From a bacterium (GTDB lineage: Bacteria > Patescibacteriota > Minisyncoccia > UBA6257 > GWB1-50-10): a stretch of DNA of 62,730 bases. The notes beneath the pieces were generated by a model. It saw only the letters and a program-made list of their open reading frames with translations, did no database searches and was not told the origin of the DNA. The DNA is taken from contig JAKALR010000001.1 in the NCBI GenBank assembly GCA_021824045.1, forward strand, positions 1-62,730, in the 5' to 3' direction. A program made the translations under genes and the position numbers. Positions 2,135-24,112 of the stretch are shown here, in pieces (the stretch's first letter is position 1; every line of letters begins with the position of its first letter).

Positions 2135-3420
2135 GGGAGAAAATTATATCCCCTGACCTTTTTGTGGTACGCAATGGCGAAGCGATGAGCTTCGTCTCGT
2201 ACTTTTATGAGCGTCGCGAGATCGGTGAATGGCGGAATTCTTCCTATGATATCATTCCGTTTCCGTTCCGGTCCTTTCACGATGCCGACGACCGGGATGG
2301 TAACTCCCGCCTTGTTGAGGATTCCGCGGACGGCGCTCACTTGTCCTCTGCCGCCGTCAATGAGGAAAAGATCGGGTAAAGGCCATCCGCCGGCCGGCGG
2401 AGTTCTTTTGAGGCGCCGTTCGAGAATTTCCCGGAGCATGCCGAAATCGTCCGGTTGAAGAACGGTCTTGATCTTAAATTTCCGATATTCGTTTTTGTCA
2501 GGCTCGTTGTTGGTGAAGACAACCATGGAACCGACCGCCGAAGTGCCGTTGATGTTTGAAATATCATAGCCTTCGATACGGTAATTTTGCTTGTCCGCCA
2601 TAGCCTCGGCGGAGGTGGAAATCTTGTCATCGGAGATGACCGCCACGTCTTGGATGTGCCGGAGGGCGAATAATTGCCGCTTCAGCTCCCCTGCCCACTC
2701 AAAGTCCAAGGCCTTGCTTGCCGACCTCATGTCGCGCTCTATATTCTTTGTTATTCTTTCTTTTTTGCCTTCGAAGATGAGTTTGACGTTCTGTATGTTC
2801 TTCGCATACTCCTCTTTTGAGATCGCTCCGATGCATGTTCCGGGGCAAAGACCGATTTGATAGTCGAAACAAGGCCGTTGTAGGGGCCTTAGCGGAGTCG
2901 GATGAGTTGCATACGGGAATATCCTCCTGATAATCCTCAGGGCTTCGCGGATGCTTGAGGCGGAGGTGAATGGACCGTACCCCGCACCAAGCCGAACGCT
3001 GCGCTCTTCGCGCTCCCGTGCGGGGCGTTTCGTTGGGCGTTTCGTTGGTGACGGGGCGAGTCTTTTGCCTTCTTTAATATCCTTTCCTCTCACCAATAAA
3101 ACCCTGGGATATTTTTCTTTTGTTATGGCGACATAGAGGAAGCTTTTGTCGTCTTTCTCTTTGATGTTGAACGGCGGCTGGTGTTTCTTGATGAGTTTCG
3201 ATTCGAGTATCAGTGCTTCCACGCCCGTATCGGTCTTCTTAAATTCAATTTTACTTATTCCATCCACTAATCCCTCGATCCTTGCGTCGTGAGGTCTCGT
3301 GAAATAGCTCGAGACCCGTCGCTTCAAGTTGACGGCTTTGCCGATATAGAGAATCTTCCCCGCGCCGTCTTTCATGATGTAGACGCCGGGAGTTTCCGGA
3401 AGTTTTGAGTAGAGATTCAT
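2131..3420 (-). CDS. uvrC: excinuclease ABC subunit C, short form (429 aa)
   Basis: GIY-YIG N-terminus (PGVYIMKDGAGKILYIGKAVNLKRRVSSY) and endonuclease core (FLIDGGRGQV..RDEAHRFAIAYHKK). The protein ends right after this core. Confidence 0.85.
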   Translation of the reverse strand: MNLYSKLPETPGVYIMKDGAGKILYIGKAVNLKRRVSSYFTRPHDARIEGLVDGISKIEFKKTDTGVEALILESKLIKKHQPPFNIKEKDDKSFLYVAITKEKYPRVLLVRGKDIKEGKRLAPSPTKRPTKRPAREREERSVRLGAGYGPFTSASSIREALRIIRRIFPYATHPTPLRPLQRPCFDYQIGLCPGTCIGAISKEEYAKNIQNVKLIFEGKKERITKNIERDMRSASKALDFEWAGELKRQLFALRHIQDVAVISDDKISTSAEAMADKQNYRIEGYDISNINGTSAVGSMVVFTNNEPDKNEYRKFKIKTVLQPDDFGMLREILERRLKRTPPAGGWPLPDLFLIDGGRGQVSAVRGILNKAGVTIPVVGIVKGPERKRNDIIGRIPPFTDLATLIKVRDEAHRFAIAYHKKVRGYNFLP

Positions 3421-12212: not shown

Positions 12213-12512
12213 TTAGGGCGTGCTGGTCGTCGAGGTGACCGTGCCGGTCGTCCCCGGTACCACGATTATAAGCCCTTCTCCCGGATTTTTGTAGTTGGTC
12301 TGGGCTTTCAGCTGCTTGATCAGGTTCGCCGGATCTTGGAAGTATTGGATTTCCGAAGACAAGTTCCGGTTTTCCTGCTGGAGTTGATTATAGTCGACCT
12401 GCAACGCCTGAGCTTGGCTTTCAGCGGCGTTTTTAGAACTATACAGGCTTATGAATCCCCATCCGATGACGGCGACCACCGCCATGAACACGATTGTCTT
12501 CCAGTACTTCAT
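12213..12512 (-). CDS. FtsB/DivIC-like septum formation initiator
   Basis: N-terminal TM helix followed by a coiled coil (QALQVDYNQLQQENRNLSSEIQYF). Confidence 0.6.
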   Translation of the reverse strand: MKYWKTIVFMAVVAVIGWGFISLYSSKNAAESQAQALQVDYNQLQQENRNLSSEIQYFQDPANLIKQLKAQTNYKNPGEGLIIVVPGTTGTVTSTTSTP

Positions 12513-12619
12513 CCCGTTAGAAACAAAACGCCTTTTTCATAAGCGGTTGCCTATGATGCGCGGTTAATTCGACTTGGTAAGTGATCATCTTTTTCATAAG
12601 TTTATGGTTTCTCACGGGA
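12513..12619. mobile_element. MITE-like element family 1, copy 1 (107 nt) inserted at a start codon
   Basis: Ends CCCGTTAGAAAC..GTTTCTCACGGG, internal direct repeat TTTTTCATAAG x2, flanked by TTCAT (12508-12512) and TTCAT (12620-12624). Confidence 0.8.
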
Positions 12620-12696
12620 TTCATTACCTCCTATTCTACACCCTCTCAGCCGCTGGATGAAAGAGTGGAGACGAAGGAGCGGAGGATTCTGCGGTT

Positions 12697-14505
12697 CTAT
12701 TTCTTGATGAGCTCCTTGAAAATCTCCGGCGCGATCCGTACCTTCCCCATCGCTTTCAGTTTCTCCTTCCCCTTCTTCTGTTTCTGCCACAGCTTTATCT
12801 TCCTCGTTCGGTCCCCGCCGTTCTTGCCGAAGTTTCCGAGTTCTTTCCGCATGGCCGGGATGTCCTCCCGCGCGATGACCTTGCCGTTTATCTTTGCCTG
12901 GATCGCCTGGGAGAACTGCTGCCGCGGCAGAGTTTCTTTCAGTTTCTGAACCATTTTTCTGGCTTCCCGTTCGACGGTTTCCCGGGGGAAGAAGCGGGAA
13001 AGTCCCGGGATGATCTCGTTGGCCACGAAACTGTCGACCCGCACGATGTCGGCTTTTTCGTAATCCATGAATTCGTAGCTGAACGAAGCGTAACCGGACG
13101 TCGTCGATTTCAGCTGGTCGTCGAAATCGCTGATAAGTTCGGCGAGCGGCATTTCGGCTTCCACCTCCACAGACGCGCCGGCCGTTTTGGTCGTCATATT
13201 TCTCACGCGGAAAATGTTTTGGAGCGAGATGACGTTCGACAGATATCTCGAGGGGACGAGGATGTGTATGCCGACAATCGGTTCCCAAATCTCCTCGGTC
13301 CCTTCGGGGAGTTCTTCCGGTTTCGTGATGAATCCCCACTTCCCCTTGTTTTTTATTTTATAAATCACCGACGGGAACGTGCTGACCACCCTCACGTTGA
13401 ATTCCCGCTCCAGCCGTTCGGCCGTTATCTCGAAATGCAGTTTCCCGAGGAATCCCACTTTGTATCCCCTGCCCAGGATCTCGTTCTGATCCGGTTCTAT
13501 TTTCAACGACGAGTCGTTCAGGTGAAGTTTCTCCAGCCCCTTTTTCAAATTATCGTAGTCATTGGCATCTTCGGGATAGAACGACACGAAGACGACCGGG
13601 TTCGGTTCCTGGTAGCCGGGGAGAACAAAAGTTTCGGGGTCTCGGGTGTAGGGTCTCGTGATGAGGAGGATGGTGTCGCCGATCTTGACGCGGCTCGTGT
13701 CCTTGATGCCGGTCGCGATGTATCCGGTGTCGCCGGCATGTATCGCGGGGGCTTCTTTGAGCTGCGGCGTGAAATATCCCACTTCTTTCACCCGGGCGGA
13801 AAAGTTCCTTTGGACCAGGTGGATCTCTTCTTCCCGTTTGAAACTCCCCTCGAAGACTCTCACCGACGCGACGACGCCCTTGTGGTCGTCGTAAAAAGAA
13901 TCAAAGATGAGCGCCCGGGGAACGCCCTTGATCTCCAGTTTCGGGGGCGGTATTTTTTTGACCGCGTCTTCCAGAAGCTCCTTCACTCCCTCCCCCGTTT
14001 TGGCGGATATGAGGTGCACTTCTTCCTTGTCGCATCCGATGAGATCGCCGACCTCCTCCCTCAGTTCCGCGAGTACCGGGTCGTTCTTATCCTTGAAGAT
14101 GTCTATCTTGTTGATGGCACCGATTAAGGTGAGGCCGGCGTTCTTGGCCGACCTGAAGTTGGAGAGCGTCTGGGCTTGGATGCCCTGCGTGGCGTCGACG
14201 AGGAGGATGCCTCCTTCGACGGCCTGGAGCGCTCGTGAAACCTCGTACGAGAAATCGGAGTGTCCCGGCGTGTCGATTAAATTGAGGGTATAGGAAATAG
14301 GGCCTAGGGTATAGGACATTCGGACGGGAGCCATTTTGATGGTGATTCCCCGTTCCCGTTCCAGTTCGAGCTGATCAAGGTATTGGGCGTGCATATGCCG
14401 CGAATCGACTGTTCCGGTAACTTCGAGAAAGCGGTCCGCGAGTGTGCTCTTCCCGTGGTCGATGTGTGCAATGATACAAAAGTTGCGGATATTTTCTTGG
14501 TTCAT
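12697..14505 (-). CDS. lepA: elongation factor 4 (LepA)
   Basis: IIAHIDHGKSTLADR, DTPGHSDF, NKID, with a full-length LepA C-terminal domain. Confidence 0.95.
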   Translation of the reverse strand: MNQENIRNFCIIAHIDHGKSTLADRFLEVTGTVDSRHMHAQYLDQLELERERGITIKMAPVRMSYTLGPISYTLNLIDTPGHSDFSYEVSRALQAVEGGILLVDATQGIQAQTLSNFRSAKNAGLTLIGAINKIDIFKDKNDPVLAELREEVGDLIGCDKEEVHLISAKTGEGVKELLEDAVKKIPPPKLEIKGVPRALIFDSFYDDHKGVVASVRVFEGSFKREEEIHLVQRNFSARVKEVGYFTPQLKEAPAIHAGDTGYIATGIKDTSRVKIGDTILLITRPYTRDPETFVLPGYQEPNPVVFVSFYPEDANDYDNLKKGLEKLHLNDSSLKIEPDQNEILGRGYKVGFLGKLHFEITAERLEREFNVRVVSTFPSVIYKIKNKGKWGFITKPEELPEGTEEIWEPIVGIHILVPSRYLSNVISLQNIFRVRNMTTKTAGASVEVEAEMPLAELISDFDDQLKSTTSGYASFSYEFMDYEKADIVRVDSFVANEIIPGLSRFFPRETVEREARKMVQKLKETLPRQQFSQAIQAKINGKVIAREDIPAMRKELGNFGKNGGDRTRKIKLWQKQKKGKEKLKAMGKVRIAPEIFKELIKK

Positions 14506-14507
14506 GG

Positions 14508-16613
14508 TTATGAGCTTTGGTATCCCAGGGTGAGCGTTATGGTGATCCGCTTGTCGGGATCATCGGTGTGGTAGGTGTAGACCGGCGAGTCGGATTCCAG
14601 CCAATAGTATTTGAACGGGGCGTTGATGGTCAAGTCGAGTGAATTTTGAACGCCGGACTGCCGTTCGAAGATGAACGTGTATTTCTGGCCGGGCATCAGG
14701 TTTTTGATGCTGCCGTAGCTCGTTTGGTAGCGCATGGCAAGCGTCGAGGTCGTCCCCGCCTTGGTGAAGAGCCAAGCTCCGAAAACATTCTTGCCGAACT
14801 CGGATCGCTGCCAGGTATCGAAGTTGGTGAGAAATACTTCGTTCGCTTGAATTGCCGCGAGATCGGGATTCACGGCATAGTCGGAATGCGCGTAGTCGAG
14901 CGTGCTGTATTTCTTCCGCGCGCTGTTTCCGGTCATGTCGACGAGGCTGGAGTTCGGCTCGGTGAAGATTTGGATGAAGTCGTTGTTGGTCGCCCGCCAC
15001 CAGGGGTCGGTTTGCGTGTTGCCGGTATGCGCCCGCACGACCGTCACGTTGGTAAAGGTGTTTCCGCTCGTGTCGATATCGACTTTGGCGCTGACTGATT
15101 CCTTGATGAACGCGTCGCTCTTGCCGCCGGCGATGTTCGCGTTCACGACTGCCAGGTAGTTTCCCCAAAATCCTTCGGGGAGTTGGTAGACGCTGCCGTC
15201 CACGTCGCTCGAATTGAGGAACGATGCAATGACCGGATCGGTGGAATAGAACATAATGTCCTTTTTGGCGATGTTGTTTTTGAGCGCGTCCATGAGCGCG
15301 CTTGCCTGCTCAGTCGAGAGGTTGTTCAGCTTTTCCATGAGGATCGGCGCCAAGACCTGGAGGATTTTCTTGGGCTGCCCCGCTTGCTTATTGGTCCCGG
15401 TTTCCGTTTCCCGTTGAACTTCTTCGAGGAAGTTCGAGGAGTCGACGGTCGGATAGCCCGGCGCCGTCACGGGACCCGTGATGGTGAGGAGCGAGTTCAC
15501 CACGTTGATATTGATGGCTATCGCGGCGTCGAACGTAATGCCTTTTTCAGAGTACATCTTGGACGCGTTCAGAAAATTCAAGGTTGTCTTGGCGGATGTC
15601 GGGAAATCGAAGAACCAGTTGGAATCCCGCGCGCCCCAGTTGGGCGTGGTTGCCTGGAGTTCTTCGGGAGGCACGATCTTCACGGCTAATTGGCCGTCGG
15701 GATCATAGATGTCCCGAACGTCCATGTTCTGCATCTGGCCGTTTTGGACACTCACGTCCGCGTAGCTTCCGATGAATCCTCCGCCGGGACGGATCTCGGC
15801 CGGGTTTTCAAAAAGGATTGCGATGTGTTTCGGGGTCGGTGAATTCAGGAAGTTGGTCAATTGGACGAGGACGTTGTCCCATCCATAGAGTTCCGAACTG
15901 TATTTCAGGTATTGGTTCCCGACGCTCTGATCGAGTCCGCCGAAGAACCCGGACATATTCTTGAGATACGAAGTTGTGTTTTTCACGCTCTCCGCCTGGG
16001 CATTCAGGTCCTGCACGAGGGAGTGCAGTTTCCCGAGGTCCGCGATGAGCGCCGGACCGTTGCTCTTGAAATACGTGAAGCCGTTTTTCTGGAGATCGTC
16101 GAGCGTGTTTGTGAGATCGAGAAGTTTCATATTGAGGGTGGATACCTGCCCCACGAGACCGAATGATTCTTTGACGATCGGAATGAAATTACCCAGGGTA
16201 TCGATGATGCTTTGCCCGAGTCCTTTCGTCACCAGATCGTTGATGTTGGCGAGTGACTTGGTGTTGCTCTGGAGGTATGCGGCGGCGGTCCCCGGTTCCA
16301 TGTTTTTCAGGGCTCCGACCGATGAATTGAAATTCTGCATGATCTGGGAGCCGTCCTGCTCGACAATTGATTTCATCTGCTTAATGTTGGCGAACGTGAT
16401 GCCGATGAAGGAAACAAGCCCGATGATCCCCGCCACGAAGACGGCGAGAACGATCCTTTTGATGATCGCGGCGACGCCCTTCTTCTCTTGTTGGGGCATC
16501 TTCATGAGGTTGACGGTCTCGAATTTGCGGAGGCGTTCGTAATCGAAATTCGGCTTCCTGACGTCAACGAGGATCGGCTCGATGTTTTTTTTGGGTACCT
16601 TTTTTTTCGGCAT
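14508..16613 (-). CDS. DUF4012 domain membrane-anchored protein
   Basis: AEIRPGGGFIGSYADV signature and N-terminal TM. Start trimmed to ATG 16613, just after the upstream GT stop. Confidence 0.75.
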   Translation of the reverse strand: MPKKKVPKKNIEPILVDVRKPNFDYERLRKFETVNLMKMPQQEKKGVAAIIKRIVLAVFVAGIIGLVSFIGITFANIKQMKSIVEQDGSQIMQNFNSSVGALKNMEPGTAAAYLQSNTKSLANINDLVTKGLGQSIIDTLGNFIPIVKESFGLVGQVSTLNMKLLDLTNTLDDLQKNGFTYFKSNGPALIADLGKLHSLVQDLNAQAESVKNTTSYLKNMSGFFGGLDQSVGNQYLKYSSELYGWDNVLVQLTNFLNSPTPKHIAILFENPAEIRPGGGFIGSYADVSVQNGQMQNMDVRDIYDPDGQLAVKIVPPEELQATTPNWGARDSNWFFDFPTSAKTTLNFLNASKMYSEKGITFDAAIAININVVNSLLTITGPVTAPGYPTVDSSNFLEEVQRETETGTNKQAGQPKKILQVLAPILMEKLNNLSTEQASALMDALKNNIAKKDIMFYSTDPVIASFLNSSDVDGSVYQLPEGFWGNYLAVVNANIAGGKSDAFIKESVSAKVDIDTSGNTFTNVTVVRAHTGNTQTDPWWRATNNDFIQIFTEPNSSLVDMTGNSARKKYSTLDYAHSDYAVNPDLAAIQANEVFLTNFDTWQRSEFGKNVFGAWLFTKAGTTSTLAMRYQTSYGSIKNLMPGQKYTFIFERQSGVQNSLDLTINAPFKYYWLESDSPVYTYHTDDPDKRITITLTLGYQSS

Positions 16614-16614
16614 G

Positions 16615-17757
16615 TTAGGCGATGGTTTTGAACGTATCGAGGAGCGCCCCGGCTGATTGTTTCCAGTCGAATCGTTTCGCATTTTCCCGGCCGGCGGCGA
16701 TCAATCGTTCCTTGGTCTTATTTTCCAACAAAACGTCTTCTATTGCCAATGCCAGCTGGTATGATTTCCAGGGATTCACGAGGATGGCGCTTTCCCCCAG
16801 CACTTCAGGCATGGGTCCCCGGTCGGAGGCCACGACGGGCGTTCCGCAGATTTGCGCCTCGAGGCACGGAAACGCGAATCCTTCGAAGAAAGACGGATAC
16901 ACGAAGACCGATGCGAGGTTGTAGAGCATGAGCAGATCCTCTTCCGTCGCTCGCCCCCAGATCAGGATGTCGTCGCGGAACGGAGAATGTTCCGCTTCGG
17001 CGAATATCTTCTCGTAGAGCCATCCCCGCGCGCCGACCAAGATCAGTTTCACGTTCTTGAATTGTTCTTTTTGCTTCAGGAGATTGAAGGCTCGGATGGT
17101 CCCGATCGCGTTTTTTCGGGGTTCCAGCGTCCCGACCTGGAGCAGGAACGGGAAATCAATATTTTTCGCCCTGGGGAACTCTCGGAGGCGTTCGTCGCCG
17201 GATTCCAGCTGCCGGTAGGAATTGTTCACGCCGGGATAGATGCGGACGATCTTCTCCGGCTTCACGTGAAACCGGTCGATGATGCTTTGGCGCGTGAACT
17301 CCGATACCGCTACGATGCGTCCCGCTTCCCGGATTTGCTTTTCGTAATTTTGTCTCCAGTGCCAGAAGTTTTTCGTCCACGTGAAGAATTCCGGGTAAAG
17401 AACGAAAGAAAGATCATGGATGGTAAGGATGTGTTTGCCGGGATTTTCAAACGACAGGATGTCCATGTGGGGGCTCCAGTAGACATCCGCCGCGACGAGG
17501 CGGTCTATTTTGGGAAAATTGAAGAAACGGTTGGCGATTCCCCAGACTTTATTGGGTATGCCGTAGTTCAGCCACGTTCCCTTCACCGTGTTTTCGAGGG
17601 GGTATCCGCCGCGGTTTTTTCCGGAGCGATTGGCGAAGAAAAGGAATTCTTCACCGGGCGCTTCGGCCGCGAGGCTCTTCGTCATGAGCCGGGTGTATTC
17701 GGGGACGCCCGAGACGATGGAAGCGTACAGTGAACGCACATCGATGAATATTTTCAT
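16615..17757 (-). CDS. glycosyltransferase family 4
   Basis: EGFAFPCLEAQICGTPVVASDRGPMPEV (EX7E region). Confidence 0.85.
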   Translation of the reverse strand: MKIFIDVRSLYASIVSGVPEYTRLMTKSLAAEAPGEEFLFFANRSGKNRGGYPLENTVKGTWLNYGIPNKVWGIANRFFNFPKIDRLVAADVYWSPHMDILSFENPGKHILTIHDLSFVLYPEFFTWTKNFWHWRQNYEKQIREAGRIVAVSEFTRQSIIDRFHVKPEKIVRIYPGVNNSYRQLESGDERLREFPRAKNIDFPFLLQVGTLEPRKNAIGTIRAFNLLKQKEQFKNVKLILVGARGWLYEKIFAEAEHSPFRDDILIWGRATEEDLLMLYNLASVFVYPSFFEGFAFPCLEAQICGTPVVASDRGPMPEVLGESAILVNPWKSYQLALAIEDVLLENKTKERLIAAGRENAKRFDWKQSAGALLDTFKTIA

Positions 17758-17863
17758 CCCGTTAGAAACAAAGCACTTTCTTCATAGGCGGTTGCCTATA
17801 GTGCGCAGTTGACTCGACTTTGTGAGTGATTTACTTTTTATAAGTTTGCGGTTTCTCACGGGA
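17758..17863. mobile_element. MITE-like element family 1, copy 2 (106 nt) inserted at a start codon
   Basis: Same termini as copy 1, flanked by TTCAT (17753-17757) and TTCAT (17864-17868). Confidence 0.8.
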
Positions 17864-17877
17864 TTCATGAAACGGTT

Positions 17878-18975
17878 TTATAATCGCAGGCCGTATTCCT
17901 GGAGAACGTTCAGAAATTTTTGTATGAAGACCTCTTTTGAAAATCGTTCCGCGGCTTTCGCGATGGCGTTCCTCTGGAAATGCATGTTCTCGAAATCTTT
18001 GACGGCCTCAATGATGGCCGCCGGCGTTTGTTCGTTGAAGAACAGGCCGGTCTTCTTGTTTTCGACAATATCCCGAATCCCCCCCTTCTCGTAGGCGATG
18101 ACCGGTGTGCCGCACGCTTGGGCCTCCGCGGCGACCAATCCGAAATCCTCGATTTGCGGAAAGATGAGCGCCTTGGCGTTGGAGTAGAGTTTCCGGAGTT
18201 CCTTGTCGTCGGCTTTCGTTATGAACTCTATCTTTTGCGACCGGGCCATCGTTCTCAGCTTCTGGAGTTCGGGGCCGCTCCCGACGATTTTCAAAGGTTT
18301 CTGCAACTGATTGAACGCGGCGATGCCGACGTCGAATCCTTTGTAATAGAGCAATCTGCCAACCATGAGGTAGTAATCCTTCTTGCCGCCGATGCTTTCG
18401 GGGAAAAAGGTTTTGAGATTGACCGGCGGATTCACGACCACCGAATCCCTGCCGTAGTACGATTTTATCTTTCCGGCGATGAAGGAAGAATTCGCCATGA
18501 AGAGATTGACCTTCGCCGCCGATTTCTTGTCCCAGTTCCTGAGGCGCTTCGCTATCGGATACGCGATGGCGTTTGAAAGGGCGCGGGGCGAGGCGGACAT
18601 GTTTTTCAGGTAATCAATCTCCCACGCGTACCGCAGGGGCGTGTGGCAGTAGCTCACGTGGTATTGCCCGCGGACGTTGATGCCCTTGCCGTAGCCCGCG
18701 GTGGAAGAAATGACGAGGTCATATTCCTCCGGAGAAGTCAGGAATTTCGCGGCGAGCGGCATGAGCGGGATAAGAGCGCGATGATGGTTTCGCACGAAGG
18801 CGTTGTCGAGGAAGCTGGTCTTCTTGATATTCCGGTCGAAGAGCCCGCCGGTCTTTTGCTTGTCGTACAGAAGCGTGTAGAGGTCTGCGTTGGGAAAAAT
18901 TTCCAGGAGGACTTTCACGACTCGTTCCGCTCCTCCAAATTGGTTCAAGTAATCATGTAGAATTGCCACTCGCAT
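17878..18975 (-). CDS. glycosyltransferase family 4
   Basis: EDFGLVAAEAQACGTPVIAYEKGGIRDIV. Confidence 0.85.
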   Translation of the reverse strand: MRVAILHDYLNQFGGAERVVKVLLEIFPNADLYTLLYDKQKTGGLFDRNIKKTSFLDNAFVRNHHRALIPLMPLAAKFLTSPEEYDLVISSTAGYGKGINVRGQYHVSYCHTPLRYAWEIDYLKNMSASPRALSNAIAYPIAKRLRNWDKKSAAKVNLFMANSSFIAGKIKSYYGRDSVVVNPPVNLKTFFPESIGGKKDYYLMVGRLLYYKGFDVGIAAFNQLQKPLKIVGSGPELQKLRTMARSQKIEFITKADDKELRKLYSNAKALIFPQIEDFGLVAAEAQACGTPVIAYEKGGIRDIVENKKTGLFFNEQTPAAIIEAVKDFENMHFQRNAIAKAAERFSKEVFIQKFLNVLQEYGLRL

Positions 18976-19042
18976 TGGTTCAATTCTACAGCTACTTCAA
19001 GAGAAATGAAAATCACGCCGATAGAGCGGATACTCTCCGTTG

Positions 19043-19642
19043 CTACACTCCGGTCGGGTCCGAGAAAAGTATGGCGATGGTTTTCCCGAGAATCTTCAAG
19101 TCCGCGAGGAACGATTCATGATCTACGTAATAGATGTCCAGCGCTACTTCATCTTTGAACGGCAGCTTCGAAGCGCCCATGACCTGCGAAAGGCCGGTGA
19201 GGCCGGATTTTGCGAGCGCGAGCCGCTTGAACTCCGGCGGGTATTTTGATATCTCTTCGGGTTCGTGCGGCCGCGGACCCACGAGCGATATATCACCCGA
19301 AAGGACGTTCCACGCTTGCGGGAATTCGTCCAGGCGGAATTTGCGGAGCAGTTTCCCGGTTTTTGTCAGTCGCGGGTCGTTCTTGATCTTGAAGAGCGGC
19401 CCGTCCTTGCGTTCGTTCAGTCCATCCAGTTCTTTTTTCATGGCGTGCGCTCCCCGAATCATGGAACGGAATTTCCAAACCCGGATCACCTTGCCGCCGC
19501 TTATCCGGTCAAGCCTCACGAATATTGGGAAACCGTCCTCGATCGCTATCGCGACCCCGATGAACGGCGTGAGGACGACGGTAATGATCGATGCCGGCAA
19601 AGCGACGATGAAGTCCAATATTCTTTTCCCCCGATAAGCCAT
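19043..19642 (-). CDS. undecaprenyl-phosphate sugar phosphotransferase (bacterial sugar transferase family)
   Basis: KFRSM..GPLFKIKNDPRLTKTGKLLRKFRLDEFPQAWNVLSGDISLVGPRP. Start trimmed to the ATG overlapping the rsmI stop (TAATG). Confidence 0.8.
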   Translation of the reverse strand: MAYRGKRILDFIVALPASIITVVLTPFIGVAIAIEDGFPIFVRLDRISGGKVIRVWKFRSMIRGAHAMKKELDGLNERKDGPLFKIKNDPRLTKTGKLLRKFRLDEFPQAWNVLSGDISLVGPRPHEPEEISKYPPEFKRLALAKSGLTGLSQVMGASKLPFKDEVALDIYYVDHESFLADLKILGKTIAILFSDPTGV

Positions 19643-20316
19643 TATGGTGTTATGATCACGAATTCCCCTTTCCCCTTTTCCTTTTCGAAATATTTTTTCG
19701 CTTCCTCGACGGTCCCCCGCCAAATCTCTTCATGGATTTTCGTCAATTCTTTCGCCACGATGAGGGGATGGTTGGGGCCGCAGATATGCTCCATGTCGGC
19801 GAATGTTTTTTGCAGCCGGTGCGGCGATTCATAGATAATGACGGGTCGAATCCCGATTTCTTTCAATGTTTGGAAGAACGTTCGCCTTCCCTTTTTATGG
19901 GGTGGGTATCCGGCGAATGTGAATTTGTCCGCGTTCATGCCCGAAGCGGAGAGAGCGGCGGCGATCGCCGAAGGTCCCGGGATGGGGACGATTTTCACCT
20001 CCGGCGTCCGGTCTCTCACGAACGCGATGAGTTTCGATCCGGGGTCGGCGATATTCGGCGTGCCGGCGTCGGTTACCATGGCAATGGCTTTTCCCGATCC
20101 CAAAAATTCAAGAACCCGTTCGTAGAGGTCGTTTTTCGCGTATTCGTCGTACCGCCACATGGGTTTCTTAATGCCAAGATGGTTCAGGAGCTTTCCCGTC
20201 ACGCGTGTGTCTTCGGCCAATATCAAATCGACGCCTTTCAGCGTCTCAACTCCCCGTTCCGTTATGTCTTTCAGATTTCCTATGGGTGTCGCCACCACGT
20301 ATAATTTACCGTTCAT
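19642..20316 (-). CDS. rsmI: 16S rRNA (cytidine1402-2'-O)-methyltransferase
   Basis: GKLYVVATPIGNLKDIT..ILAEDTR, tetrapyrrole-methylase fold family. Confidence 0.9.
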   Translation of the reverse strand: MNGKLYVVATPIGNLKDITERGVETLKGVDLILAEDTRVTGKLLNHLGIKKPMWRYDEYAKNDLYERVLEFLGSGKAIAMVTDAGTPNIADPGSKLIAFVRDRTPEVKIVPIPGPSAIAAALSASGMNADKFTFAGYPPHKKGRRTFFQTLKEIGIRPVIIYESPHRLQKTFADMEHICGPNHPLIVAKELTKIHEEIWRGTVEEAKKYFEKEKGKGEFVIITP

Positions 20317-20386
20317 GATTTTCTCAATTTTTTAATTTTGTAATTTTATAAATAAATCTCTAATTTTCAAAAGTTTTTAAACATTA

Positions 20387-20418
20387 TTTAAAAATTAAAA
20401 ATTGGAAATTAAAAATTT
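20387..20418. repeat. AT-rich intergenic motif, copy 3
   Basis: TTTAAAAATTAAAAATTGGAAATTAAAAATTT, upstream of rsmI. Confidence 0.8.
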
Positions 20419-20549
20419 ATTTCAAACCTTTACTTTAGATTTTATCCTTGATTGAGCGTTTCTGACTTTGCAATGCTGACGATATCGAAAAAGAGCTGGC
20501 GTCCGGTATGCCGGATTGCCCGGCCTGTTTCCAATTTTAGCACGATTTT

Positions 20550-21323
20550 TCATTTTACCCGAAACAGTTTCTTTACCTTTTTGTCGCGCGACCATCCGGC
20601 AATCCTTTTTTTCATTAGCTCTTCCCCGTTCCGATAGTCTTTTTCTATTACTTTTATGACCTCAACGAAGGCGTCGTCGATTATCCCGCTCTTTTCCGTT
20701 GAATGGCGGTAGACCGCAGAGAGGGCATAGCCGAAACCGTTTGCGATGAGTGGCCCTCCTTTTTTATTTGACGTTTTCCCTATCCACGCCGTAATTGTTT
20801 TTCTGTGGCCGATGATTGCGAGGAGCGTCCTTCTCATGCCGTCGAATACATGGAAGCCATCCGGTCCTTCCCAGAGGAATATCGGATAATCGTCTCGCTC
20901 TTGGTGCTTTGAAAACCCCGTTTTTAAAATGGCACCCCTCGCCTTTTTGTTGGTTTCCCATAATTTCAAGAATTGCATGGGGTCGCTTTTACACTTCGCC
21001 ATTGTGTAACGATCGATTTCCGGAGACATCCCGGTAAGCACTATCTTCTCCAGGGGAATTTCTTTGCGCGTCCAAATAAATCGTGTATCCGATAATATCC
21101 GGAAAACAGCTTTGAGTTTCCAGTCTTCGGCTATGGCCGCGACGAGATTCCAAAATGACGATTCGCCCTGCGTTTTTGGGAAGTTCGCAATTTCCCGGTC
21201 TATTGCCTGCCACGTTTTTTTGTCTTTGATGCTGCCCAGTATCTTTCTAAATTCATGCTGCAAATATTGGATTGCCATCTTTTCGGCGTTTTTCGACGGG
21301 GTCAATTTCAGCTCATTTTTCAT
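20550..21323 (-). CDS. hypothetical protein with weak ParB/sulfiredoxin-like motif
   Basis: FHVFDGMRRTLLAII resembles the DGxxR core of ParB-N/Srx folds. Start overlaps the mltG stop. Visibly AT-rich. Confidence 0.55.
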   Translation of the reverse strand: MKNELKLTPSKNAEKMAIQYLQHEFRKILGSIKDKKTWQAIDREIANFPKTQGESSFWNLVAAIAEDWKLKAVFRILSDTRFIWTRKEIPLEKIVLTGMSPEIDRYTMAKCKSDPMQFLKLWETNKKARGAILKTGFSKHQERDDYPIFLWEGPDGFHVFDGMRRTLLAIIGHRKTITAWIGKTSNKKGGPLIANGFGYALSAVYRHSTEKSGIIDDAFVEVIKVIEKDYRNGEELMKKRIAGWSRDKKVKKLFRVK

Positions 21324-22285
21324 TTGAGGTATTGCTCTATGTTTAATTTTTGCTCAGCGTAGGTATTTGCGCAATGGATGACGCGGTTCGCGTCGTGGAG
21401 ATAGTAAAGACACGTCGTGGTTTGCGGGTTCAATGCGGCGTTCATCGCCGCAAGTCCGGGATTCGAAATGGGTGTCGGCGGGAGGCCTCTGTGGAGATAC
21501 GTATTGTAGGGTGAATTGATTTTCAAATCGGCGACGGCAAGCGGCGCCCAGTAGCCCTGGCCGGTATTACCGCGCGCGTACTCGATGGTTGCGTCGATAT
21601 CGAGGGGCATATTTTTCAAGAGCCGGTTCCAGATAATGCCCGAGATGAGCGCCATGTCACTCGTCCCGGCCGCCTCTCGTTGGATAATCGAAGCGATCTT
21701 CAAGGCCGTTGTCCATTTGATGTTTTGAGCTGCCGCTTCTTTCGCGTATGGCGCGAAGCTCTCGTTGAATTGGGTTATGAATCTTTGCGCGATCTGGGTA
21801 CCCGTTTCGTCGACGGGCAGAAGGTAGGTATCGGGGAAATAAACTCCCTCTTGATAATCGTTGCCGCCCAGCGTTTGATAAGCATTCAAAAATTGGTTTT
21901 TGGTCGCGTCGGTCCATCCGAGATCTTTTTGGAGAAGATCCGCAGTCTCCTCTTTCCGCAGGCCCTCCGGCACGACGACCCACTTCATATACGGCGGTTG
22001 TCGGAGAATCGCGGCAACTTCAAAAGCGTTCATGCCTCCGGAAATCTGGTATCCGCCCGGAGTGATGGTCGGGTTTCCCTCGAGAAGAAGCGCGACCGAG
22101 AAACCGAAACTGCTCCGGATGAACCCCTGACTTGCCAAATTTTGTATCGCTTGGGCGTTGTTTTCGCCGAGGGGCGCCACGAATCGTTCAGGCGTCGGCG
22201 CTCCTCCCGGCGCGCCGAAGAAAAGATAGTATGCCGCTCCCAGAACGAGAATCACCAAGCCCCCGATGATGAGTGTTTTTTTCAT
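21320..22285 (-). CDS. mltG: endolytic murein transglycosylase MltG (YceG-like)
   Basis: N-terminal TM plus YNTYLHRGLPPTPISNPG, typical of the YceG family. Confidence 0.85.
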   Translation of the reverse strand: MKKTLIIGGLVILVLGAAYYLFFGAPGGAPTPERFVAPLGENNAQAIQNLASQGFIRSSFGFSVALLLEGNPTITPGGYQISGGMNAFEVAAILRQPPYMKWVVVPEGLRKEETADLLQKDLGWTDATKNQFLNAYQTLGGNDYQEGVYFPDTYLLPVDETGTQIAQRFITQFNESFAPYAKEAAAQNIKWTTALKIASIIQREAAGTSDMALISGIIWNRLLKNMPLDIDATIEYARGNTGQGYWAPLAVADLKINSPYNTYLHRGLPPTPISNPGLAAMNAALNPQTTTCLYYLHDANRVIHCANTYAEQKLNIEQYLK

Positions 22286-22340
22286 ATTCCTCTTTAGCCA
22301 TTATAACCTCCCCGTCCTTGATAGTATAACCGTATCGGGG

Positions 22341-22372
22341 TTTAAAAATTAAAAATTGGAAATTAAAAATTC
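22341..22372. repeat. AT-rich intergenic motif, copy 4
   Basis: TTTAAAAATTAAAAATTGGAAATTAAAAATTC, between divergent mltG and the TrpR-like gene. Confidence 0.8.
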
Positions 22373-22377
22373 CCAGT

Positions 22378-22395
22378 GGTATACTATAGTATACC
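22378..22395. promoter_or_regulatory. perfect palindrome GGTATACTATAGTATACC overlapping a TATACT -10
   Basis: Directly upstream of the TrpR-like gene. Related to 11901-11917. Confidence 0.5.
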
Positions 22396-22405
22396 ATCCG
22401 GAAAT

Positions 22406-22696
22406 ATGCCGAGAACGAGCAAAAAATATTTTGATAAGAAAACAAAAGAAGAAATCTGGAAATCTCTTTTTGAGGCATTGCAAAAAATAAAAGGAGGTAA
22501 TGACGTTGAGAGGATAATGGACCGACTGCTTTCCGGAGACGAGAAGATGATGCTTGAGAAAAGGTTGGCAATCCTCAGTTTGCTCAAAGAAGGCGTCTCA
22601 ATCAGGGAAATCAGTCGGCGTTTGAGCGTAACGCGGCGAACCATCACGTTTTTAAGATCCGGCTTCAAGCAAAGAAGCAGCGGAAAGGGGCGGTAA
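22406..22696 (+). CDS. TrpR-like YerC/YecD family DNA-binding protein
   Basis: DEKMMLEKRLAILSLLKEGVSIREISRRLSVTRRTIT. Start trimmed to ATG 22406. Confidence 0.7.
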   Translation: MPRTSKKYFDKKTKEEIWKSLFEALQKIKGGNDVERIMDRLLSGDEKMMLEKRLAILSLLKEGVSIREISRRLSVTRRTITFLRSGFKQRSSGKGR

Positions 22697-22698
22697 GC

Positions 22699-22932
22699 TT
22701 ACTCGCCGATGTATTTGAATCGGGGGACTTTTTGGCCGTTGACTTCCACTTTTTCGAGAAACATATTGAGCGGGCGGACCCAGATTTGGCCTTCGTCGTA
22801 GAGTGCTTGGTAGACGACCATCTCTTCCATCGTCTCGCTGTGTTTAGCCACTCCGAGAACCCGGTACCGGTGATGTTCCGGTTTGAAATGTTCGTAGACA
22901 CCCAATTTGAGGTTTTTTGCTTCTTCGGTCAT
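22699..22932 (-). CDS. DUF1653 family protein
   Basis: YEHFKPEHHRYRVLGVAKHSETMEEMVVYQALY..WVRPLNMF. Confidence 0.7.
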   Translation of the reverse strand: MTEEAKNLKLGVYEHFKPEHHRYRVLGVAKHSETMEEMVVYQALYDEGQIWVRPLNMFLEKVEVNGQKVPRFKYIGE

Positions 22933-23510
22933 GATTTTCTTTTAATGAAGCCGTCGAAGGTTATTCTTTCGTAGTCCAATTCATCGATGCCGTTCATTTT
23001 GTAAATTTGGTTAGTGGAAAAGATTTTTTGATCGGCGGAATCGAGACGGAGAAGCTTTTCAGCTTCGCTGACTTTCTCCCATGACGGCGCTTCGATTTCG
23101 AGATACGGATTGAGTTTCGGCCAGGTATCGATGTCGAATTCAATATCCCCTTTTTGCCAGCGGATTCTTTTGTTTTCCTCATAGAACTTATAGATCATGC
23201 CGATGCTCAGGAGGAAATCGACTGTTTTTTGGTAATCGTTCACGATGATTTCCACTTCTTTCATGCTCCGGTCGGAAGTTTTTCCATCATCGCTCGAAAC
23301 TCCCAGCCGCTGCTTGAAGGTAAGGGTAATGCGTTCGCCTTCATCCCGCAGACGAACCCATGCCGCCTGCTTATCTAAGGGAAATCCCGGGAAATCGAAA
23401 ACCTGCCGGCGATAGAAGTATTCACCGACTTTATGCGCCCCAATCGCCTTCAACTTTTCTTCGATTGCCGCCGGATCGATATCAAGGAACTTCACTTCTT
23501 TTTCTTCCAT
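22929..23510 (-). CDS. CYTH domain protein (class IV adenylyl cyclase / triphosphate tunnel metalloenzyme)
   Basis: EVKFLDID..WVRLRDEGERITLTFK..EVEI..FDIDTWP..LEIE. Confidence 0.75.
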   Translation of the reverse strand: MEEKEVKFLDIDPAAIEEKLKAIGAHKVGEYFYRRQVFDFPGFPLDKQAAWVRLRDEGERITLTFKQRLGVSSDDGKTSDRSMKEVEIIVNDYQKTVDFLLSIGMIYKFYEENKRIRWQKGDIEFDIDTWPKLNPYLEIEAPSWEKVSEAEKLLRLDSADQKIFSTNQIYKMNGIDELDYERITFDGFIKRKS

Positions 23511-23617
23511 CCCGTTAGAAACAAAACACCTTTTTTATAAGCAGCTACCTATGATGTGCTGCTGACTCGACTTTATGCGCGGACATATTTTTCATAAGTT
23601 TGTGGTTTCTCACGGGA
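23511..23617. mobile_element. MITE-like element family 1, copy 3 (107 nt) inserted at a start codon
   Basis: Same termini, flanked by TCCAT (23506-23510) and TCCAT (23618-23622). The flank differs from copies 1 and 2 but is duplicated on both sides. Confidence 0.8.
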
Positions 23618-23641
23618 TCCATGGCTTTTATGGTAACCTCT

Positions 23642-24112
23642 TCACTTAAGATTTTCAATTTCCGAAAGTTTATTCGCGAGAATCACGTCGTTCTCTCCGA
23701 AGAGAAATCTTCCTCTGAACTTCTTCCCTTCTAAAAAGAGCGGGAGCCAGAATTTGTCATCCGGCCACATTGTATCGTAGGGAATATCGGCTATGTCAAA
23801 CCATTGCGGTTTCATTTCCTCACTTTCTTTCGGTGTCCCGGTAAAACCTTTTATCTGAAAAACGTGTACCTCGAAGATCCCCCCATTTATTTGGAACTCG
23901 AATTCCAAAATGCCCTGCTTTTCCATTTCGGTTGCCGTAATACCGGCCTCTTCGTGGAGTTCGCGTTTTGCCCCCTCTTCCAAGCTTTCGTCCTTGTTCA
24001 ATTTTCCCCCGAAGCCGTTCCACCGTCCGGCGCCGAATCCCCGTTTCTTCATGCCGAGAAGGATTTTCGGATGCTCGTAGATTAAACAGAGCGTGAGCGG
24101 CGTCTTATTCAT
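23642..24112 (-). CDS. Nudix hydrolase (MutT-like)
   Basis: GGKLNKDESLEEGAKRELHEEAGI Nudix box. Start taken at MNKTPL. Confidence 0.8.
   Translation of the reverse strand: MNKTPLTLCLIYEHPKILLGMKKRGFGAGRWNGFGGKLNKDESLEEGAKRELHEEAGITATEMEKQGILEFEFQINGGIFEVHVFQIKGFTGTPKESEEMKPQWFDIADIPYDTMWPDDKFWLPLFLEGKKFRGRFLFGENDVILANKLSEIENLK

Follow-up and report, generated by a model that had tools for sequence, protein, structure and literature searches.

A short inverted-repeat element on the start codon of a Patescibacteria glycosyltransferase gene, with a proposed ribosome relay and a candidate GIY-YIG partner

How does a gene remain readable when its start codon has been split by a repeated element, and what kind of element settles at such a place? 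The question is raised by the junction of two glycosyltransferase (GT) genes in a 62,730-nt stretch of bacterial DNA (hereafter the window; GenBank assembly GCA_021824045.1, contig JAKALR010000001.1, positions 1 to 62,730), which is contig C25 of a Patescibacteria genome of 611,871 bp in 32 contigs, 97.7% complete and with a coding density of 0.89. Positions refer to the window unless another contig of this genome is named. Both GT genes and all parts of the element at 17757-17863 are described on the minus strand, which is the gene strand. We read this element as a slightly decayed, non-autonomous miniature transposable element with inverted repeats (a MITE), from a Patescibacteria family associated with start codons, in which a small open reading frame (ORF) would relay ribosomes to the rebuilt start codon and a GIY-YIG nuclease would be the mobilising partner. 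To this reading as a whole we assign a probability of about 0.72.

On the gene strand, the junction runs from the stop codon of the upstream GT gene (TAA, 17880-17878) through AACCGTTTC, ATGAA, T-CCCGTGAGAAAC ... GTTTCTAACGGG-A and TGAAAATATTC. A preliminary description of this DNA had pointed to the pentamer TTCAT (ATGAA on the gene strand) at 17753-17757 and 17864-17868 and to the inverted termini, and direct reading bears out both. The upstream direct repeat (17864..17868) contains the original start codon of the downstream GT gene (17868-17866), which now opens a first upstream ORF (uORF1), whereas the downstream repeat (17753..17757) contains the working start codon of the 380-aa GT (17757-17755). 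The 9 nt that were said to lie between the upstream stop and the ATG are correct for the distal ATG; the 106 nt given for the present separation need amending, as the true ATG lies 120 nt from that stop. Between the direct repeats, CCCGTTAGAAAC (17758-17769) and GTTTCTCACGGG (17851-17862) are inverted copies of each other over 12 nt, apart from one mismatch. On the gene strand, CCCGTGAGAAAC and GTTTCTAACGGG match at 11 of 12 positions and pairing extends to 14 with the flanking AT, which are terminal repeats of the kind that define a MITE. The 5' terminal inverted repeat, T-CCCGTGAGAAAC, occupies 17851..17863, and its T at 17863 is probably part of the element; across families, the terminal pair covaries as T/A or C/G. 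The 3' repeat, GTTTCTAACGGG-A (17757..17769), holds the TAA (17764-17762) that closes the proposed relay ORF, and it ends with base 17757, which provides the A of the rebuilt ATG. The core spans 105 nt (17758..17862), to which one base (A at 17863) is added; it belongs to subfamily A, whose consensus is 106 nt, and has lost by a 1-nt deletion the G of an internal ATG at codon 10. As RNA, the element folds at -33.5 kcal/mol (z -3.4), and the 14-bp terminal stem formed by the two repeats in the predicted fold takes in the A and U of the GT gene's AUG; as single-stranded DNA, the elements fold as hairpins (z -4.6). A scan of 17500-18100 for promoters and terminators placed none inside the element, and Rfam at E<=1 gave no match over 12300-24000 of the window.

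The element is an insertion at this site, not a sequence deleted in the relatives. In six congeners the orthologous GT-GT junction is element-free and has ATGA[AG]G once only; the empty junction was read in the congeneric genomes G001, G003, G004, G005 and G007 and likewise in records L076, L077 and L079-L081. At these empty junctions the two genes stand 0-14 nt apart or overlap by ATGA, as in ...CCATAGAATCATGAAGATCTTCATCGAT and in ...CTGATGATATGAAGATCTTC, where the upstream stop overlaps the ATG; the tight, coupled junction that the preliminary description had pictured without the element is thus what the relatives have. All element-free orthologues begin with M-K/R-I-F, which makes the rebuilt ATG at 17757 the ancestral start position, and the downstream GT agrees with them at its N-terminus (MKIFID), its ORF being intact and 61-66% identical to the orthologues over its full length. 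A pattern of the joined flanks, as expected of an empty site, found 0 matches in metagenome contigs.

Insertion duplicated the target. Across the family, the flanking pentamers pair as ATGAA/ATGAA at 25 sites, ATGGA/ATGGA at 5 (Fisher P=2.7e-4), GTCAA/GTCAA at 2, GTAAA at 1 and ATAAA at 1, and because left and right pentamers covary, the duplication is real. A pentamer carried by the element itself, as in an IS200-like insertion beside its target without duplication, was rejected, since the left pentamer varies with its partner on the right and not with the subfamily. Whether 4 or 5 bp were duplicated is ambiguous because T...A can be added to the inverted repeat, and three short-family copies fit 5 bp equally well. 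In relatives with C...G ends (L049 and L062), ATGAx stands on the left and GTGAx on the right, which favours duplication of 4 bp, the element itself contributing the base that opens the new start codon. Judged from these flanks, the duplication is probably 4 bp (TGAA), and the element's last base would be the A of the rebuilt ATG.

The sites are strongly biased towards start codons. With elements virtually removed and genes called crudely from ORFs, 32 of 43 sites are predicted gene starts, against a share of 8% among ATGRA sites overall (binomial P~3e-26, a result that holds under three parameter settings), and these 32 have a common orientation. Several of the sites scored otherwise are gene-call artefacts caused by spurious opposite-strand ORFs (for example C25:12513 and C23:5424). 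About 250-290 predicted genes start with ATGRA, and roughly one in eight eligible starts is occupied. Homing by a homing endonuclease was considered and rejected in view of the ~40 unrelated loci and the target duplications. Copies of a 76-78-nt subfamily with C...G-ended repeats (C13:8680-8756, C13:14668-14743 and C10:11660-11737) are flanked by GTCAA or GTAAA and do not lie at start codons, so that the target is better described as RTNRA-like than as strictly ATG.

The terminal 12-mer occurs 9 times in the window where 1.4 are expected (0 of 100 shuffles reach 9), and the 116-nt stretch with its direct repeats has at least 25 other full-length matches in the same genome at 75-85% identity. 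Pairing of terminal motifs yields ~43 elements in 612 kb, of 76-122 nt, plus one of 278 nt. Subfamily A (106 nt) accounts for ~25 copies, and the others measure 100-103, 112-122 and 76-78 nt. Oriented by their interior, nearly all copies read ATGAAT/CCCGT.AGAAA ... TTTCTAACGGG/ATGAAn, and the long ORF starts at the right-hand ATG. The 35-aa ORF of the short form has no Pfam hit, as befits a MITE family of many short copies without an enzyme gene. Within the window, copy 1 (12513..12618, minus strand) is a 106-nt member of subfamily A with its 35-codon relay ORF intact, and copy 3 (23511..23616, minus strand), also 106 nt, has ATGGA on both sides and a relay ORF broken by TAG at codon 26. The copy on the GT start codon is 85% identical to copy 1 in DNA, has the same orientation relative to its gene and likewise sits at a start codon with a flanking duplication, so that its recognition as a second copy of one element was sound; it carries the 1-nt deletion that turns CTTATGAAAAAG into CTTATAAAAAG and is an older, frameshifted member of this start-codon-targeting MITE family. 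Beyond the host, subfamily-A sequence was present in 4 of 8 congeners searched and in 0 of 32 other genera. The right-end motif TCTAACGGGRTGR was found in 60 of 401 sampled genomes of the phylum, where the reversed control gave 0-1 per genome, and is commonest in the host genome (39).

Two further arrangements were observed among the copies. In another species, record L078 (DAIDAY010000001.1) has a 101-nt element at 1400-1500, at the identical GT-GT junction, with the same terminal repeats and an interior that cannot be aligned. Its left flank, CTCTGAAT, contains no ATG, the TGA being the upstream GT stop, and an internal ORF of 23 codons has its TAA 4 nt ahead of the ATG; the same GT start codon appears to have been struck independently here. 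At C14:16839-17063 of the host genome (G000), two subfamilies stand in tandem, ATGAAT[106 nt]ATGAAT[113 nt]ATGAAA, and the second element appears to have inserted into the start codon rebuilt by the first.

How, then, could a gene be translated through such an insertion? The geometry of the small ORFs offers a possible answer. The 106-nt form has an ORF of 35 codons (consensus MNPVRNHKLMKKMITNKVELTAHHRQSLMKKAFCF) that starts at the original ATG and closes at the TAA in the right repeat, giving TAA-CGGG-ATG; of the 43 copies, ~27 keep this ending of TAA, 4 nt and ATG. Among the 20 in-register copies, 19 have the 35-codon frame open, whereas 5.7 stop-bearing copies are expected from neutral simulation (P=0.01) and 3.8 from a column shuffle (P=0.02), and the ratio of nonsynonymous to synonymous polymorphism (pN/pS) is 0.47-0.55 in the relay frame versus 0.71-0.77 in the other two frames. 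Length variants differ mostly by multiples of three (100, 103, 109, 112, 115 and 121 nt), and in one copy indels compensate each other. Subfamily-B ORFs that begin at the host ATG often meet an early stop; an internal ORF, MNK...YYF, running to the same TAA is nevertheless kept in 9 of 9 closely aligned copies, in any phase. Copies in three other species of the genus retain ORFs of 34-35 codons. With the right end TTTCTAACGGGATGA, an element length of 1 mod 3 places the TAA in frame, one of 2 mod 3 places the TGA of ATGA in frame, as in the 278-nt form, and one of 0 mod 3 leaves the frame open and fuses it to the host protein, for which there is one case (C28:5246). Selection thus looks to favour a frame that would deliver ribosomes to the rebuilt ATG over any particular peptide, the signal being moderate. 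The preliminary description had argued from the divergence between two copies that peptide conservation is unlikely to be what is selected. Put in that way, the argument is not supported: the divergence itself is a frameshift in one copy, and the 35-codon frame is generally open, with the lower pN/pS just described; what survives of the argument is that an open frame ending next to the ATG, more than the peptide, looks selected.

In the fused case, the 105-nt element at G000 C28:5246-5350 forms an in-frame 157-aa fusion, the gene's own ATG is now ATA, and the N-terminus of what is probably a secreted or membrane protein now comes from the element ORF. Many copies have TGnTATAAT-like -10 boxes 6-10 nt upstream of the original ATG (for example G000 C2:28505, C28:5246, C30:1809 and C28:3689). 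Such genes may have leaderless or very short-leader mRNAs, and a 5'-terminal AUG would then initiate the element ORF.

Taken as a mechanism, our reading is as follows. The family enters 5'-ATGA(A)-3' at gene starts and duplicates 4-5 bp (TGAA or ATGAA), and the base that closes the element (A, in some subfamilies G) together with the duplicated TG rebuilds a start codon on the far side, so that the host protein is unchanged. The original ATG, which keeps the gene's ribosome-loading signals, would open the short ORF through the element; ribosomes translating it would unfold the terminal stem of 14 bp, in which the AU of the gene's AUG is otherwise hidden, and would terminate beside the rebuilt AUG, from which the gene could be translated by termination-reinitiation. 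Insertion, duplication, start-codon bias, the geometry of the ORFs and the common ends can be read from the sequences themselves; the relay, and a transposase role for the nuclease described below, we infer.

In the copy on the GT start codon, this path would now have two steps. Through the loss of G from the codon-10 ATG, the peptide of uORF1 departs from that of copy 1 after nine residues, and uORF1 (17782..17868, 28 codons plus TGA, MNPVRNRKLIKSKSLTKSSQLRTIGNRL) is a frameshifted remnant of the 35-codon relay ORF. Its TGA overlaps the ATG of a second upstream ORF, uORF2 (17762..17785, 7 codons, MKKVLCF, plus TAA), in the sequence cTATGAag, and uORF2 ends at the family TAA, 4 nt before the GT ATG. 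The internal ATGAAG that starts uORF2 is kept in most subfamily-A copies. We suggest that a two-step relay survives here, from uORF1 to uORF2 to the GT ATG. The original ATG at 17868-17866 has no Shine-Dalgarno sequence and lies 9 nt past the upstream GT stop, so that it is probably served by coupling itself, and the whole junction would probably be a chain of coupled ORFs comprising the upstream GT, uORF1, uORF2 and the downstream GT.

What moves the elements? The 278-nt copy (C12:21666-21943) lies on the start of a dnaJ-like gene and has the same ends as the short elements. Its sole ORF, MNPVRDHNL-MFYVYVMQSKK...KRFLSLTG followed by a stop, is a GIY-YIG domain (Pfam E 4e-16) with no other domain, and its closest solved relative is the UPF0213 protein BH0048 (1zg2, E 6e-6). 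The nuclease gene of this element is placed at C12:21687-21944. Over its first 30 and last 30 nt, the full-length element agrees with the MITE consensus at 27 and 23 positions, for which reason subfamily A looks like a derivative made by internal deletion. Of 61 genomes sampled from the taxonomic family, 53 contain small GIY-YIG ORFs, and the best hits in at least 12 further genera of that family have the form ATGAAT/CCCGTTAGAGAC-ORF-GTCTCTAACGGG/ATGAA at a gene start. These full-length relatives are ~276-278 nt long with a single GIY-YIG ORF of 86-95 residues, which is always in frame with the host ATG and often lacks a start codon itself; in L052-L055, none occurs between the host ATG and the conserved YVYV strand. 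The ORF ends ...CTA ACG GGA TGA, its stop coming from the duplicated TGA and overlapping the rebuilt ATG. The full-length element thus appears to borrow its start codon, stop codon and expression signals from the host gene. The GIY-YIG nuclease is the likeliest candidate for the mobilising enzyme, linked to the short elements through shared ends only. A search of the host genome found no rve or DDE_Tnp_1 transposase. Other GIY-YIG matches in the genome lie at C15:16982-17200 (the genome's best Pfam hit, E 8e-20), at C13:22939-23184, a gene with its own ATG and without element repeats, and at 3175-3390 of the window, inside a 430-aa open frame.

A larger proposal can be built on these elements, and we advance it tentatively, at somewhat less than even odds. 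The ~276-nt elements would be the smallest autonomous transposable elements known, the first prokaryotic class moved by a single-domain GIY-YIG (Ssn-like) nuclease and the first that bring along no start codon, promoter or stop; after insertion in ATGA they would begin translation at the host ATG, end it at the duplicated TGA and give the ribosome back via the ATGA overlap, and the 106-nt MITEs would be deletion derivatives keeping the ends and a relay ORF.

Several observations weigh against our interpretation. The test of frame openness is modest (P~0.01-0.02), and the copies share ancestry and are not independent. About 12 copies, including that on the GT start codon, have premature stops 20-88 nt before the ATG, so that not every gene needs a perfect relay; the upstream ATG has decayed to ATA in two copies that form an orthologous pair, and no Shine-Dalgarno sequence is evident before uORF2 or the rebuilt ATG. 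The start-codon bias could reflect selection after insertion and not targeting. On the side of the enzyme, the host genome holds one full-length copy, whose repeats are 1-2 bases off those of the MITEs, and we know of no GIY-YIG enzyme that catalyses transposition of the kind marked by terminal inverted repeats and 4 duplicated bp. A 255-aa Y1_Tnp homologue with HxH and Y motifs (C11:12292-13092), which passes the Pfam cut-off at E 6.5e-9, is encoded in the genome as well and is possibly an alternative mobilising enzyme or a domesticated RAYT-like gene. This homologue, together with the hairpins that the elements form in single-stranded DNA and their size of ~100 nt, which resembles that of REPINs, would suit a REPIN- or PATE-like hairpin moved as single-stranded DNA by a Y1 transposase of the IS200/IS605 or RAYT type, with the GIY-YIG ORF as a passenger. 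We consider this improbable: peel-and-paste transposition makes no target duplication, whereas the flanks here covary; the Y1 gene is single-copy and not flanked by element repeats; and full-length elements with the same ends carry the GIY-YIG ORF in many genera.

The same structures could be viewed as serving the host. A regulatory module recruited as a thermosensor, an attenuator or a protein or small-RNA site, and kept at ~40 starts for co-regulation, would account for a stable structure that sequesters the AU of the AUG, for the uniform position relative to start codons and for the fact that some insertions occur in more than one species and are hence old. The genes concerned have no common theme, however (GTs and dnaJ-like, topoisomerase-like, ftsB-like and hypothetical genes), the elements are patchy among congeners with orthologous sites empty, and many decayed copies, a target duplication, a nuclease-bearing full-length form and the lack of an Rfam match all speak against it; co-regulation seems to us as improbable as Y1-driven movement. 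Slightly better placed, and still unlikely, is a plain MITE with an ATGAA target whose uORF geometry has no function, other insertions having been lethal and purged from an 89%-coding genome. Only ~9% of ATGRA sites lie outside predicted genes, and some copies with broken uORFs leave their genes intact, as such an account would have it. Yet the ~290 intergenic, non-start ATGRA sites hold almost no main-family copies, and purging leaves unexplained the open frame, its end 4 nt from the ATG, the lower pN/pS, the internal ORF running to the same TAA in 9 of 9 subfamily-B copies and the dependence of the nuclease ORF on the host ATG. We therefore continue to prefer a MITE family with a translational relay and a GIY-YIG partner.

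The upstream GT gene (17878..18975, minus strand, 365 aa, GT4) matches the Pfam family Glycos_transf_1 at E 2e-31 and stops 9 nt before the original ATG. The downstream gene (16615..17757, minus strand, 380 aa, GT4), whose start codon the element splits, matches the same family at E 8e-29, and its closest public relatives are metagenome-assembled genomes labelled Patescibacteria or Saccharibacteria. A genetic code with TGA as a sense codon was rejected, as long ORFs read normally under table 11. A DUF4012 ORF (724 aa, 14508-16682, counted from its first ATG) overlaps the 3' end of the downstream GT gene by 68 nt (16615-16682), and its true start is probably further downstream.

If the relay works, a selfish element has reached ~12% of eligible starts in a 612-kb, 89%-coding genome without killing genes, and a start codon that is split, rebuilt and given back its ribosome would explain how ~40 copies persist in so compact a genome. 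The copies would then also be natural variants for the study of termination-reinitiation, including TAA at +4 nt, ATGA overlaps, an in-frame fusion and broken relays. If the GIY-YIG nuclease mobilises the family, it would represent a new catalytic class for prokaryotic transposons, and the Ssn-like single-domain nucleases, which abound in Patescibacteria, would gain a biological role. The elements also matter for the annotation of Candidate Phyla Radiation (CPR) genomes, where they give rise to spurious short ORFs and wrongly placed start codons.

A literature search returned no description of start-codon-targeting inverted-repeat elements or of prokaryotic GIY-YIG transposons, and comparison is best made with families that share part of the design. 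IS200/IS605 elements and their PATE and REPIN relatives form hairpins, have a strict short target and a fixed orientation and give rise to miniature derivatives; they make no target duplication, carry subterminal hairpins and are moved by a Y1 HUH transposase. The Patescibacteria elements differ in that their flanks are duplicated and covary, their ends are shared with a GIY-YIG ORF and the Y1 homologue is not flanked by their repeats. Correia (NEMIS) elements of Neisseria and Rickettsia palindromic elements (RPEs) are likewise short elements, non-autonomous and with inverted repeats, which occur many times over in small genomes and are tolerated within transcription units. As with REPINs, what they have in common with the Patescibacteria family goes no further than the general theme. 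Correia elements duplicate a TA and are not known to favour start codons, and RPEs are tolerated because they are in frame and are read through as part of the host protein. In contrast to RPEs, the copy on the GT start codon and most others have an in-frame stop before the gene's ATG, and only that at C28:5246 is fused.

The closest parallel to the full-length form is offered by the Ssn nucleases, single-domain GIY-YIG nucleases of ~94 aa (CDD cd10448) that cut single-stranded DNA alone, at specific sites, and whose genes are flanked by NTS/SRM hairpins scattered over the genome, an arrangement (NTS-ssnA-NTS) that the authors themselves remark resembles an insertion sequence (Chenal et al., 2025; PMC11893778). 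The Patescibacteria nuclease (86-95 aa, with GIY-YIG as its sole Pfam domain) resembles this family, in both cases a repeat that flanks the gene is scattered genome-wide in many copies, and the 5' part of the NTS, CGTCAT-TCCCGCG, resembles the element end TTCAT-CCCGTTAG. The SRM motif HGTCWYN(0-2)YYVSBRHN(0-5)WNVSBRGN(0-2)RNCYNB had 3 matches in the host genome against 1-6 in shuffled sequence, none of them at the elements or the C12 nuclease gene. SRMs are compact hairpins of ~30 nt on each side of the gene, whereas the Patescibacteria element has one arm at each end and the ends pair together; start-codon targeting, target duplication and relay ORFs have not been described for the Ssn system.

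For the relay, the precedent is that of MIRUs (interspersed repetitive units of mycobacteria), apparently mobile short repeats at start codons whose internal ORF, as summarised in a review, is coupled to the interrupted gene at a spacing of -4 nt and so limits harm (Supply et al., 1997, via review PMC12548453). As far as that summary goes, the logic would be the same here, with a repeat at a start codon whose internal ORF would be coupled to the gene; the spacing reported there of -4 nt has its counterpart in the ATGA of the full-length form and of uORF1/uORF2, whereas the MITEs have +4 nt (TAA-CGGG-ATG). MIRUs belong to Actinobacteria (mycobacteria) and are direct, often tandem units of 40-100 bp that are not known to have terminal inverted repeats, a defined target duplication or an enzyme partner. 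The Patescibacteria family is set apart from them by its single units, 12-14-nt inverted repeats, 4-5-bp duplication and GIY-YIG full-length form, and, if its relay is true, would be a second and mechanistically clearer case of the MIRU proposal.

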